Shown here in pieces: positions 49,943-55,916 of a DNA stretch of 64,000 bases. Source of the DNA: Escherichia coli (GTDB taxonomy: Bacteria; Pseudomonadota; Gammaproteobacteria; Enterobacterales; Enterobacteriaceae); the NCBI RefSeq assembly GCF_003334815.1, contig NZ_QOWO01000015.1, one strand, 5' to 3'. Made by a program: the position numbers and the translations under genes. Numbering within the stretch: position 1 is the first letter of the stretch; each line of letters opens with the position of its first letter. A model generated the notes under the pieces. That model saw only the letters and a program-made list of their open reading frames with translations, was not told the DNA's origin and did no database searches.

Positions 49943-50596
49943 TTAATCTGTCACTTCTCGCCATTCACCATTGGCAAGATTATCCAAAGAGTAATCACCC
50001 ATCGCATAGCGAATCAGTCGCAGCGTGGGGAAGCCAACATGGGCGGTCATGCGGCGCACCTGGCGATTACGTCCTTCATATAAGGTGATCTTCAGCCAGC
50101 TGGTGGGAATACTTTTGCGTTCACGAATTGGTGGATTCCGCGGCCATAACCACGCGGGTTCGTCAACCAGCTCCGCGCCGGCGGGCAGGGTAGGGCCATC
50201 ATTTAAGGTTACGCCATTGCGCAAGGCTTCAAGTGCGTCTTGTGTGGGAATACCTTCCACCTGCACATAATAGATTTTTCCGGTGCGTTTACCCGGCTGG
50301 GTTAAACGCGCCTGCAACGCGCCGTTATTGGTCAGCACCAGCAACCCTTCGCTATCGCGGTCAAGGCGACCTGCTGCATAAACACCCTGAACCGGGATGA
50401 ATTCTTTTAATGTTTTGCGTCCGGCTTCATCGGTGAACTGCGGAAGAACATCGTAGGGTTTATTGAACAGGATCACACGCGTGGGCTGGTTTTCAGGTTT
50501 ACGCCTGGTAGAACGTTGCGAGCTGAATCGCTTAACCTGGTGATTTCTAAAAGAAGTTTTTTGCATGGTATTTTCAGAGATTATGAATTGCCGCAT
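49943..50596 (-). CDS. rluE: 23S rRNA pseudouridine synthase RluE, 217 aa
   Basis: RsuA-family pseudouridine synthase motif ([15 protein letters not shown]). Confidence 0.9.
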
Positions 50597-50767
50597 TATA
50601 GCCTAATAACGCGCATCTTTCATGACGGCAAACAATAGGGTAGTATTGACAAGCCAATTACAAATCATTAACAAAAAATTGCTCTAAAGCATCCGTATCG
50701 CAGGACGCAAACGCATATGCAACGTGGTGGCAGACGAGCAAACCAGTAGCGCTCGAAGGAGAGGTGA

Positions 50768-52018
50768 ATGGAAAGTAAAGTAGTTGTTCCGGCACAAGGC
50801 AAGAAGATCACCCTGCAAAACGGCAAACTCAACGTTCCTGAAAATCCGATTATCCCTTACATTGAAGGTGATGGAATCGGTGTAGATGTAACCCCAGCCA
50901 TGCTGAAAGTGGTCGACGCTGCAGTCGAGAAAGCCTATAAAGGCGAGCGTAAAATCTCCTGGATGGAAATTTACACCGGTGAAAAATCCACACAGGTTTA
51001 TGGTCAGGACGTCTGGCTGCCTGCTGAAACTCTTGATCTGATTCGTGAATATCGCGTTGCCATTAAAGGTCCGCTGACCACTCCGGTTGGTGGCGGTATT
51101 CGCTCTCTGAACGTTGCCCTGCGCCAGGAACTGGATCTCTACATCTGCCTGCGTCCGGTACGTTACTATCAGGGCACTCCAAGCCCGGTTAAACACCCTG
51201 AACTGACCGATATGGTTATCTTCCGTGAAAACTCGGAAGACATTTATGCGGGTATCGAATGGAAAGCAGACTCTGCCGACGCCGAGAAAGTGATTAAATT
51301 CCTGCGTGAAGAGATGGGGGTGAAGAAAATTCGCTTCCCGGAACATTGTGGTATCGGTATTAAGCCGTGTTCGGAAGAAGGCACCAAACGTCTGGTTCGT
51401 GCAGCGATCGAATACGCAATTGCTAACGATCGTGACTCTGTGACTCTGGTGCACAAAGGCAACATCATGAAGTTCACCGAAGGAGCGTTTAAAGACTGGG
51501 GCTACCAGCTGGCGCGTGAAGAGTTTGGCGGTGAACTGATCGACGGTGGCCCGTGGCTGAAAGTTAAAAACCCGAACACTGGCAAAGAGATCGTCATTAA
51601 AGACGTGATTGCTGATGCATTCCTGCAACAGATCCTGCTGCGTCCGGCTGAATATGATGTTATCGCCTGTATGAACCTGAACGGTGACTACATTTCTGAC
51701 GCCCTGGCAGCGCAGGTTGGCGGTATCGGTATCGCCCCTGGTGCAAACATCGGTGACGAATGCGCCCTGTTTGAAGCCACCCACGGTACTGCGCCGAAAT
51801 ATGCCGGTCAGGACAAAGTAAATCCTGGCTCTATTATTCTCTCCGCTGAGATGATGCTGCGCCATATGGGTTGGACTGAAGCGGCTGACCTGATTGTTAA
51901 AGGTATGGAAGGCGCAATCAATGCCAAGACCGTAACTTATGACTTCGAACGTCTGATGGAAGGCGCTAAGCTGCTGAAATGTTCAGAGTTTGGTGAAGCG
52001 ATCATCGAAAACATGTAA
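50768..52018 (+). CDS. icd: NADP-dependent isocitrate dehydrogenase, 416 aa, uninterrupted
   Basis: Full-length [41 protein letters not shown]... with a native C-terminus and terminator; no prophage junction. Confidence 0.96.
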
Positions 52019-52039
52019 TCTCTCCATGTGTTAAATATT

Positions 52040-52073
52040 GAAACGGGCGTATAACACGCCCGTTGTTTTATTT
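52040..52073 (+). terminator. icd intrinsic terminator
   Basis: Hairpin AACGGGCG-TATAACA-CGCCCGTT followed by GTTTTATTTA. Confidence 0.65.
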
Positions 52074-52120
52074 ATGTGGATATTATTAATAGCATATCGA
52101 GCATATTTATATGAAGCCCA

Positions 52121-52444
52121 TTACTTGAGCCCATATGGGCATATTTTTATAATGCAACTATTATGTAAACATTTATTTGTTATTTTGCTTTCTCCTGGAG
52201 GACACTCTTGACTGCTTTTGAGTAAACTCCATAAATCCTTGTTGAATGGTGCGATGTGATAAATAGTAATAGGATATTCTTTATCCTTAAGGATAATACC
52301 AGACTTAACCGGTGTAAATATACTGCCAGGAGGGAGAAATATAGTAGATTGATACCAGATGATCATTTTCATATTACCCCATATGGCTGAAAAAGATATA
52401 CCACATGTAGGTTGAATTACCGTGTCAATTACTATCCACTTCAT
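52121..52444 (-). CDS. iraM: Anti-adaptor protein IraM (RpoS stabiliser under Mg2+ starvation), 107 aa
   Basis: 107-aa [15 protein letters not shown]...CPYGLK recognised as IraM (YcgW); low-GC coding sequence. Confidence 0.85.
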
Positions 52445-53143
52445 TTGTTATGTCTTATCCCACGGTATTTAATATGGTTCATTAGGATGTTTATTTCTTG
52501 ATTTTGCATATGAGTATATTACCCCCCCCTCAAAAAAATAAATTAATTAAAATGATGGCTTATATAAAATAAAATTTAAAGCAAGGAATCTCAATGGATG
52601 TTAAACAAAATGAGATTTTGTGAAAGCAATAAATTATTGACTTCGTTTTAGATTTGTTTAGCTATAATGTTATACATTCAAATGACTGAACATCCTGTAA
52701 TTAAAACATAGCCTTTATGCTACTTTGTGCCAATTTGCTAAACATTATGGTTGCCTTTTTATATAACGATAATAATGAATATAAGCATGACATGAGAATA
52801 AGGTTTCAATTTTTGAGTTATATAGGAATGATTTAACCTGTTCCTGGCTAAAATACATATAACCGGATGATGACTAAACCAAAATACATGTGCGTTAAGT
52901 ATTGAAACGGACGTGTGGCACGGCCGTTGTTTTTATAAATATGTTAACCGTTATAAAATAACGTATCAAAAGTCAAGTGATCACATTTCAAATATCAAGT
53001 TGATAGTATTAGTCTGGTGATTATTTATGGGTGACAATAAAAAGACAGTATTAATCATCCATAGAGATAGTCTCTGCACTTTTATTTCCATTATGCTAAT
53101 GCCTTACTGAATTATGAAGCATTTCTTAAGTATCCAACTTTAG

Positions 53144-53548
53144 CTAGATTAATGGTTTATTATTTTCTACATCTTCAATATATAAAAGCGTATTATCAAT
53201 GGCGTAGTAACTGCGTTTGTTATGATTAACATCAGTAACCCACCGGAAAACGCCCGCGCCTGCCAGTGTTGAACAGTATTCCCGAAATGTAGATTTTCCG
53301 CAAATATGAAGCAATGCGGCCTCTTTTATTTTAGCAGGGTTCTTGGTCGTACTAACTTTTAACAGGTTCCTGGTTCCTCTTAATAACAAAACCGTATCAT
53401 CGTGAGTAATAATTCTGATGTTATCCGTAGCCAGATAATAAATGTAATGTGCAATACGGTGATGTTTTAATTCTGAATAAAACCAGGAGAAGTTTTGCTC
53501 TTTTCTCACTTGCTCAAACATCTTTTGAAAAACAACGACCTGATCCAT
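53144..53548 (-). CDS. ycgX: DUF1398 protein YcgX, 134 aa
   Basis: 134-aa ORF in AT-rich context, upstream of bluR in the remembered K-12 order. Confidence 0.8.
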   Translation of the reverse strand: MDQVVVFQKMFEQVRKEQNFSWFYSELKHHRIAHYIYYLATDNIRIITHDDTVLLLRGTRNLLKVSTTKNPAKIKEAALLHICGKSTFREYCSTLAGAGVFRWVTDVNHNKRSYYAIDNTLLYIEDVENNKPLI

Positions 53549-53768
53549 CAGGATAATAACCTCTTGTTAGTTGTGAGACTGCGTAGTGTGCACGATCGGT
53601 TTTACCACTTCAATCTGGTCTGTCCTTTGGCTGTGATATGTACAGAGTGTGATAGAGGGAATATCTGAATTCTCCCGGTGAGCATTTTGCAACGGACCAG
53701 CTCCGGTACAAACGCTGTTGTGGGTTCAGATTATAACATTCTGTCTAAGGGGCGGGATAAAGGTGAAA

Positions 53769-54500
53769 TTAGGGGGCATGAAAGATGACTTTATAACCTT
53801 GCTCACCCCAGTGTTGTAAAAGTTCGTTTTGCCTTCTCGTTGGTGCCATGCCTGTCCAGACAATCAATGTTTGCGTCGGGAACAGTTCCGGGCGCGGCGA
53901 TTCAATGGGATCAGCAAGAACAGAAATGTGCCATCCTGACAATGATAAACGCCATGCTTCCAGCCACAATCGTGCTCTCTCTTCAACATTCCACGCCATC
54001 AGAATGGCTTCTTTACCGGGCTTACGGCGCATTTCGAAAAGCGAGGTTGCTGCGTATTCAATTAATGCGCCGTCAAACATACTGCTCATAATGCGGGAGG
54101 TGTTGTGATCAAGCACGAGACGCTGGCGAACAGGAAGGTAAACATGATTAATCAATTGATCTACTGGGTACTCTCGACCCAGTGAAATAATTCTCGCGCG
54201 TAGTTTGGCAGGATTAGCCATGCGAAGAATTGACATCATCTCTTCTTGCAGGCGGCTCCAGTCATCTTCCGTATCCTGGCTGGTGGTTTCCAGTAATGCT
54301 TTAACTTTGCCTACAGGGACGCCATTACTTATCCAACGCTTGATCTCTTCGATGCGTTGTATGTCTTCTTCATCAAAGAGTCGGTGTCCGCCTTCACTGC
54401 GCTGTGGTTTTAACAAACCGTAGCGGCGTTGCCAGGCCCGGAGAGTGACAGGATTAATCCCGCAACGTTCAGCAACATCACCAATGCTGTAATAAGCCAC
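53769..54500 (-). CDS. bluR: MerR-family repressor BluR (YcgE), 243 aa
   Basis: N-terminal MerR HTH ([40 protein letters not shown]). Confidence 0.9.
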
Positions 54501-54550
54501 AATTCCTCCTTGCGGTCACAAATCTCCGTCGCCTGTACACGACCCAATAA

Positions 54551-54586
54551 TACTTTGTACAATATACGCTAAAATTGTACAAAGTA
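54551..54586. promoter_or_regulatory. Perfect 13-bp inverted repeat TACTTTGTACAAT-N10-ATTGTACAAAGTA upstream of bluR (candidate operator, or bluF terminator)
   Basis: Read directly; lies 51-86 bp upstream of the bluR start and about 120 bp downstream of the bluF stop. Confidence 0.4.
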
Positions 54587-54704
54587 TAAATAAGATTTCA
54601 GCTAAATTGGATGAAACATTATTTTTAATGTGGATTAAATTTAAACGTAACGTATTCATTTTCACGATGATTTACTGAAATCATGTGAAAGAATGTGCTG
54701 AAAA

Positions 54705-55916
54705 TTATTTTTTCTCTGGCCACGCTATGGAAGGGATACCATTCAATTTAGCTTTAGCAAACAGATCTCCCTGAAACATCTCAATTCCTGCGGATTCAAG
54801 CCACATCCACTCTTCTGGTGTTGCCACGCCCATAGCACTGACTTGAATTTCAAGTGATGTACAGCATTTTATGATCGCCTGAATAATTGCCTGCCGTGGC
54901 CCACTTTTATGAACATTGGTAATCAATTCCTGACTGATTTTAATTCTGTCAGGCTGGAAGCGTGACAGGAGTAACAAACCAGCAAAACCTGCGCCAAAAT
55001 GATCAATTGCTACACTGATACCAGCAGCCTTTAGCGATTTAATCGCTTCGGCAAACTCATCAAACCGAGATATGACTTCACTTTCAGTAAATTCAACGAT
55101 GATTTGTTCAGGCACCAGAGCATTGGCCTTTATTTCATTAAGTAAAAAAGAGACTGCGTCAGGTTCGTTAACCAGGGTCATAGGTAATAGATTGATTGAA
55201 ATCATTTTATCACCGAGCTCAAGTGCGTGTGCCATCGTGAATGCAAGCGCCTTACTTTTGAGATCCGCTGTGTAGATTTCCCCGTCTTTACGCTGCCCAA
55301 CCGCTATGGCTGATGGGCTATCTTCATTTTTTTGCACAATGGCTTCAAAAGCGATTATCCGCCGCGATAAGGGATCGACAATAGGATGAAAGGCAAAGTG
55401 GTCGTTTATAGTTGGTGAAAGGGCACAGGAATCAAGTTCTTTATCAGATCCGTCAGCGATAAAAAGCCAGGAGTCTTCGGCAGGGATCTCGAAATAGGTT
55501 GATTGTTCGGTTGCAAGGACAAAAGTACGAAAAAATTGTAGCGCTCTGTCATCATAAGTTAGCTGAAATTTTGATGTGCCTTTGTCGAATACGGCCTGTA
55601 AAACGTCATCTCGCTCGTGCAGGCGCAAATCAAATAATTCCATTCCCGCTTTGCCAAAACGGCGAGCAGGCGCGTAATCGCACAGCAGCTCAACAATATT
55701 ATAGTGCCGTGGATCCTGGCATATAGCCCGATATATCATTTTAACCTGTTCTTCCGGACCTTCCAGAAGCTGGAAAAAATGAGAACCATTAAACAGTAAG
55801 ATCCCTGTTACGTCAGACTGCATGTTCCTGCGATTTGCTATCGAAACCATTTCTTCGATTTTTTTGACAGGTTCGTCGTCACGTATATGGCTACGATAAA
55901 TAAGGGTGGTAAGCAT
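54705..55916 (-). CDS. bluF: Blue-light sensor BluF (BLUF domain plus degenerate EAL domain), 403 aa
   Basis: N-terminal BLUF domain (MLTTLIYRSHI...) and C-terminal EAL-like domain; start at the internal ATG giving 403 aa. Confidence 0.9.
   Translation of the reverse strand: MLTTLIYRSHIRDDEPVKKIEEMVSIANRRNMQSDVTGILLFNGSHFFQLLEGPEEQVKMIYRAICQDPRHYNIVELLCDYAPARRFGKAGMELFDLRLHERDDVLQAVFDKGTSKFQLTYDDRALQFFRTFVLATEQSTYFEIPAEDSWLFIADGSDKELDSCALSPTINDHFAFHPIVDPLSRRIIAFEAIVQKNEDSPSAIAVGQRKDGEIYTADLKSKALAFTMAHALELGDKMISINLLPMTLVNEPDAVSFLLNEIKANALVPEQIIVEFTESEVISRFDEFAEAIKSLKAAGISVAIDHFGAGFAGLLLLSRFQPDRIKISQELITNVHKSGPRQAIIQAIIKCCTSLEIQVSAMGVATPEEWMWLESAGIEMFQGDLFAKAKLNGIPSIAWPEKK

Follow-up and report, generated by a model that had tools for sequence, protein, structure and literature searches.

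An unoccupied attachment site of the e14/phage 21 type predicted within the 3' end of icd in an Escherichia coli strain close to K-12

The region considered here lies in a 64-kb stretch of Escherichia coli DNA (64,000 nucleotides, called the window below) and is centered on icd, the gene for NADP-dependent isocitrate dehydrogenase, which occupies positions 50768-52018 on the plus strand as a single open reading frame of 416 amino acids with Glu398 and Glu410. A terminator scan placed an intrinsic terminator at 52042-52074 on the same strand, between icd and the convergent gene iraM (52121-52444, minus strand), which encodes an anti-adaptor protein of 107 amino acids. The iraM DNA is 100% identical to MG1655 b1160, and the RefSeq records with matching DNA carry the annotation iraM. 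Only 102 nt, with no prophage DNA among them, separate the icd stop codon from the end of iraM. A preliminary description of this DNA, made from the sequence alone, had read the locus as one continuous 416-aa icd ORF followed by its terminator and then by iraM, and the ORF list, the hairpin and the position of iraM all bear out this order.

The terminator consists of a 9-bp G+C-rich stem and a 5-nt loop (52042-52064) followed by a T run (TTGTTTTATTT / GTTTTATTT), the combination of features downstream of the icd stop codon by which a Rho-independent terminator is predicted. Its RNA has a folding energy of -18.4 kcal/mol against a mean of -8.6 for shuffled sequences (z = -4.0). Across nine host and phage variants, 98.8% of the stem cells are paired and two pairs show compensatory changes, found in the e14 and 689R6 versions (both e14-type), where both sides of the pair are altered. 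The hairpin is thus kept in every host and phage terminator version compared, the one unpaired cell coming from a second, decayed copy of the terminator region described below. The loop of strain MMC-J-0078 and of phage 1H12 reads GTTAT, the exact reverse complement of the ATAAC found in the window (52051-52055), which together with the unchanged stem amounts to an inversion of the hairpin loop.

Comparison with E. coli K-12 MG1655 by BLAST showed that the window is collinear with positions 1144357-1223401 of that genome at an identity above 99.9%, the sole structural difference being the exact absence of the 15,204-bp e14 element (1196209-1211412). When the window was aligned with MG1655 1143000-1226000, two blocks were obtained, the first joining window 1-52069 to MG1655 1144357-1196424 and the second joining window 51854-63842 to MG1655 1211413-1223401. 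Since the two blocks overlap on the icd 3' end (51854-52069), the missing interval is exactly MG1655 1196209-1211412, the same interval that the MG1655 annotation assigns to the cryptic prophage e14. Leaving the icd 3' end aside, the window and MG1655 differ at 15 places (14 substitutions and one indel), 12 of them upstream and three downstream. Judging from this comparison, the source strain is a very close relative of K-12 that is distinct from MG1655. The preliminary description had also stated that in K-12 e14 sits in the 3' end of icd and leaves a displaced icd fragment; this displaced native end is called icdC in K-12.

Searches of the window with the whole of e14 (15.2 kb; blastn and tblastx) returned a single match, at 51854-52069/72 with 87% identity, and no integrase, excisionase, lit, mcrA or pinE gene was found in the window. 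The set of genes that makes up the cryptic prophage between icd and icdC (intE, xisE, lit, ymfK, pinE and mcrA) is likewise absent from the 64 kb, and all the remaining genes have non-phage counterparts in K-12. These results uphold the earlier claim that the window is free of integrase, excisionase and phage genes. As to mobile DNA in general, one qualification applies: an IS10/ISVsa5 copy, which belongs to the insertion sequences rather than to phages, is inserted in ymgJ, and its terminal ~160 nt (CTGAGAGATCCCCTCATAATTTCCCC...) close the window (63840-64000). The junction with ymgJ is shared by no complete genome of the E. coli collection searched. Separately, yceF (1655-2279, minus strand), which encodes a Maf-like m7GTP pyrophosphatase, has a one-base insertion at window position 1931 relative to MG1655 1146287, which breaks the gene into overlapping ORFs of 108 aa and 122 aa; the frameshift may be genuine or may reflect a sequencing error. 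A tRNA scan found no tRNA gene in the window, and an Rfam scan of positions 50000-54000 gave nothing above the gathering scores.

The attachment site itself was delimited by a three-way comparison of the window with the K-12 attL and attR junctions. Column by column, the window follows attL to the left of position 51854 and attR from 51854 on, so that the composite of the attL left arm and the attR right arm matches window 51790-52110 with no mismatch over 321 nt. The only stretch common to attL and attR before they diverge is the 11-mer ATGCTGCGCCA, which is therefore the likely crossover region of e14. It lies at 51854-51864, in icd codons 363-366, occurs once in the window and holds the same position in icd as in the K-12 lysogen. 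From this core, the segment of which icd-targeting phages carry a duplicate in attP extends along the plus strand to 52069 and comprises the last 54 icd codons with the stop codon, a spacer and the terminator. The icd 3' end is present in a single copy, and no arm-type site of phage 21 (YYTTCCCCAAAA) occurs anywhere in the window, which holds no relic of a phage-21-type arm. With one copy of the segment and no phage DNA, the window is in the attB state.

The core and arms are identical to those with which e14 recombined in K-12, and from the identity to the left arm of attL and the right arm of attR, the site has the same sequence as K-12 would have after precise excision of e14. We are therefore highly confident, on the strength of this identity, that 51854-52069 represents an intact and unoccupied attB with its flanking homology, probably recognized by lambdoid tyrosine integrases of the e14/phage 21 group, inside the 3' end of icd. 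The strand-exchange positions are those suggested by the blocks of identity, and the integration competence of the site is likewise inferred from its identity with the K-12 site, into which e14 is reported to reintegrate, to go by the title of Brody et al. (1985). The preliminary description had proposed that the locus is empty and had suggested aligning the icd 3' end and the downstream DNA with the K-12 e14 junctions; the mismatch-free composite and the exact absence of the e14 interval agree with that proposal, and 51850-52078 holds a single copy of the icd 3' segment and no phage DNA. That interval also brackets well both the core and the segment mimicked by phages. An empty icd attachment site is in itself textbook biology.

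The K-12 site of e14 (Brody & Hill 1988; Hill, Gray & Brody 1989, as cited) is the closest known counterpart, with the same gene, the same codons 363-366 and the same 11-bp core. The window equals the left sequence of attL joined to the right sequence of attR, and its Icd is the Glu398/Glu410 form described for the excised state; unlike K-12, the window lacks e14 and shows the 15 differences over 64 kb. Nucleotides 1-1086 of icd are 100% identical to K-12 icd, and all 12 differences between the two genes fall in the last 165 nt, 3' of the att core. Ten are synonymous and two are not, and the Icd of the window differs from the K-12 protein only by E398D and E410D, with Glu at both positions. 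According to a passage in PMC6379469 (citing Hill et al. 1989), excision of e14 restores icd with Asp-to-Glu replacements, and the Icd predicted from the window matches this published description of the e14-excised form.

Sequences homologous to the segment were found in at least 28 Escherichia phage records, phage 21 included, which match the query from 51854, 51855 or 51860, most of them running to 52071. The alignment places the start of the phage-host homology at the core (51854/51855) and its end at the final T of the terminator's T run (52069), so that it runs from the core over the 3' end of the gene as in the attP of a cognate phage. The attP of the phage-21 type reads ...TATATAC followed by TGCTGCGCCA, and that of e14 reads ...CTAACTA followed by ATGCTGCGCCA; the identity of the phage-21-type attP with the window covers 51855-51870, TGCTGCGCCATATGGG. 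In each of the five phage genomes inspected (21, 4A7, ev017, ev207 and 1H12), an integrase gene comes directly after the icd fragment, and phages 4A7 and 21 also carry xis. The order in phage 21 is a 165-nt icd', the terminator, three arm-type sites, int and xis. The site of phage 21 resembles that of the window in that TGCTGCGCCATATGGG lies in its attP and the surrogate icd' and terminator are followed by arm sites, int and xis; the window differs in holding only the bacterial partner, without the arm-type sites.

The last 54 icd codons and the icd terminator next to int and xis in these phages suggest how the site would work. Int-mediated exchange in the core would join the 5' part of the host icd to the phage surrogate 3' end and terminator. 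By replacing the native 3' end, the surrogate would leave icd intact and Icd functional, and the native end would be displaced by about 15 kb in the case of e14 and by about 45 kb with genomes of the phage-21 type, to stand as the icdC pseudogene adjoining iraM. Excision by Int and Xis would be the exact reversal. These steps of exchange, displacement and excision are drawn from the structure of the lysogens and from the literature; a paper whose title begins "Integration specificities of two" is cited in PMC12803456. A comparable strategy is used by elements of the P4 and P22 type. Such elements insert at the 3' ends of tRNA or protein genes, which they repair with a surrogate copy, and, as at icd, they carry their own copy of the gene 3' end, keep the target functional and leave a direct repeat, the displaced native end, at the distant junction. 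Unlike the P4/P22-type elements at tRNA genes, the target here is protein-coding, the surrogate carries a terminator, and in K-12 icd it alters two amino acids. The integration specificities of the lambdoid phages 21 and e14, and their common attB site, were reportedly the subject of work by Wang and colleagues in 1997.

Occupied versions of the site occur in several genomes. In O157 Al Ain, int and xis come directly after icd; in CFT073, an icd fragment marks attR; and in the type strain of E. albertii, NBRC 107761, an arm site of the phage-21 type (TCTTCCCCAAAA) and a fragment of an integrase come after the icd terminator. This arm site and fragment indicate that the same site has been used in the sister species and that the element there is degraded. 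In the extracted piece of NBRC 107761 (about 3866-4530), the fragment is the C-terminal part of an integrase, 208 aa in length. The attL of O157 carries the phage-type TTA Leu codon within the 11-mer, which suggests either that some phages exchange at the left edge of the identity block or that the host allele differed.

Two further observations concern the surroundings of the site in other genomes. The iron/manganese transporter gene sitA lies about 1-2 kb from the icd fragment in phage 21, in phage 4A7 and in the CFT073 element, and the sit operon seems to be carried along by phages that target icd. In the e14-free K-12 strain AG100 (NZ_LN832404.1), an 84-bp tandem duplication spans the att core and lengthens icd to 1335 bp. 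It lies at about 3139-3307 of the extracted piece, corresponds to window 51838-51922 and has native-type alleles in both copies; it could be an assembly artefact or a product of aberrant excision. A similar duplicated Icd segment is modeled in a 2026 preprint.

To place the empty state in the species, counts were made over 5,426 complete E. coli genomes. A query that demands an unbroken run from the icd sequence 5' of the core through the terminator into iraM, the arrangement of the window, was matched by 3,030 genomes (56%), and the corresponding query for genomes lacking the module by about 253. The total of empty sites is therefore about 3,280 (about 60%), and the icd site is occupied or disrupted in at most about 40% of genomes. 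These figures agree with a count of 2,370 additional copies of the 218-nt segment. A broader query matched 3,861 genomes, but attR and its downstream DNA alone cover 88% of it, so that this number is no measure of emptiness. Whole e14, at a coverage of at least 80%, is present in 276 of the 5,426 genomes, and the best e14 match reaches at least 99% in 279 records; the two full-coverage records shown, at 99.9-100% identity, are both K-12 laboratory strains. The absence of e14 is thus the rule, the empty site is the commonest state, and the finding is an ordinary one. With 28 phage records carrying the segment and about 40% of genomes non-empty, the suggestion in the preliminary description that the locus is a likely integration target appears reasonable. 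As a rough estimate from coverage thresholds, the site is non-empty in about 790 of the 1,039 genomes without the iraM module compared to about 830 of about 3,860 with it, and the two backgrounds appear to be occupied at icd to different extents.

Because precise excision regenerates attB, a site that was never occupied and one that was precisely cured look alike. A former e14-like prophage may have left the window by precise Int/Xis excision, the empty state being what followed; we consider such a history rather unlikely. In its favor, only the 15 differences noted above, apart from the icd 3' end, separate the window from MG1655, K-12 icdC with its flank is matched at 100% identity by the icd 3' end and downstream DNA of the window, and the e14-minus K-12 derivatives GM4792, ER1821R and ET12567 share its structure. 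SOS-driven excision of e14 is also described as frequent (six of eight evolved lines). However, ET12567 has the MG1655 allele at all seven of the window-differing positions in the aligned region and the window is therefore not of the ET12567 lineage, IS10 being common to both. The match to the window is slightly closer in natural isolates that are also empty (FORC_081, PC6, MS 124-1 and others) than in the K-12 derivatives, which, like the ET12567 alleles, speaks against a K-12 laboratory origin. Whole e14 is confined to the 276 genomes counted above, and precise excision would leave no trace in the sequence.

Another possible history, which we judge distinctly improbable, is that the icd 3' end is itself a phage-derived scar of past lysogeny, the prophage having been lost later by deletion or homologous recombination. 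The variability of the segment is what such an origin would account for: in five comparison loci, the last 165 nt of icd diverge by 4.9-8.5% among E. coli and the first 1086 nt by 1.0-2.3%, a three- to eightfold excess, and the alignment shows a mosaic of host and phage icd 3' alleles. Only 1,378 of the 5,426 genomes have an allele with 99% identity or more to the icd 3' segment of the window, and 2,883 are only 90-95% identical to it. The variability of the icd 3' end is said to have been ascribed to phage-borne replacement by Wang, Whittam and Selander in 1997. Against this origin, the window allele matches no phage copy exactly (95.9% at best), has none of the 12 e14-type substitutions and is the displaced host copy that K-12 keeps as icdC; no scar of phage replacement was seen in the icd 3' end of the window when it was compared with icdC and the phage copies. 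As for the view that the att resemblance is incidental and the site a plain gene end and terminator with no role in integration, nothing speaks for it except that a 3' end is common to all genes, and it can practically be discarded in the face of the exact reconstruction of the K-12 attL and attR junctions, the identical homology limits of the 28 phage records and the occupation of homologous sites in O157, CFT073 and E. albertii. An intact attB in its unoccupied state thus remains the preferred reading of 51854-52069.

Downstream of the site, the composition profile and the pattern of presence and absence define an AT-rich module (52070-52890, 821 nt, GC 0.27-0.34), for which the annotation gives only iraM, the first gene downstream of the empty site, and ymgK (52701-52745, minus strand). 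The low GC extends past the module through ymgL and ycgX to about 53650. A repeat finder revealed a 43-nt direct repeat (family D1, 84% identity) on either side of the module, in which copy 1 (52027-52069) is the icd terminator and copy 2 (52891-52933, plus strand) is a decayed second copy of the terminator region that forms no stable hairpin (z = -0.6). In strains RS571 and 2014C-3655, the second copy shows only five differences from copy 1, indicating that the copy in the window has decayed further. Exactly 864 bp are missing at the repeat in AR_0017 (where the site is empty), in CFT073 (at attR) and in MMC-J-0078, and a single terminator leads into the right flank of copy 2, directly in AR_0017 and CFT073 and after IS200C in MMC-J-0078. 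The junction without the module is present in 1,039 of the 5,426 genomes (about 19%), including CFT073, 536, Nissle 1917 and ATCC 25922. With its flanking repeats and with genomes that lack it exactly at the repeat, the module resembles, in these two respects, an islet left by an integrative element.

Tentatively, the 864-bp module may be what remains of a mobile element inserted at the T run of the terminator, the 43-nt copy having been either duplicated or brought along by the element, in which case iraM would be neither e14 nor ancestral host DNA; we hold this to be possible, at somewhat less than even chances. The terminator and its decayed copy bounding the module, the absence exact at the repeat and the IraM homologues on Stx2 phages are in line with an insertion. 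The opposite polarity is equally allowed, the module having been deleted through the 10-bp identity CCGTTGTTTT in the lineages without it. No integrase or mobility gene, nor a remnant of one, was detected in the 821 nt by annotation, similarity to e14 and int, or arm-type sites. In a contig scan for outgroups, the pattern GATGATGCTGCGCCAYATGGGNTGGAC proved to be conserved well beyond the enterobacteria, mostly in Burkholderiales among the matches listed, which include one useful outgroup locus, that of E. albertii, where the site is occupied.

The IraM homologue of phage 2851 (NC_049943.1, 24242-24562) has 107 aa, with 65% amino-acid and 73% nucleotide identity, and in at least 40 records of Stx2-converting phages a homologue sits on the strand opposite to stx2B at a distance of about 300 nt, most of the listed records leaving the gene un-annotated. 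A cassette with iraM shared between the window and an Stx phage was considered and rejected, as the two have no flanking sequence or terminator copy in common. A statement in the literature holds that iraM "is found on the e14 prophage"; it is contradicted by the window, where iraM is present without e14 and is thus not part of that element.

Being e14-free at icd, the strain is probably McrA-negative and Lit-negative unless these genes are located elsewhere, and from the sequence of its site it should be lysogenisable at icd by phages of the phage-21 type. For annotators, the Icd of this strain is to be taken as the Glu398/Glu410 form, although the practical value of the finding is small. The duplication of the terminator around iraM provides a modest lead on the arrival of this gene for an RpoS anti-adaptor in E. 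coli. If the older insertion is real, the icd terminator would be a second insertion point, with iraM left behind by a previous event at this hot spot.
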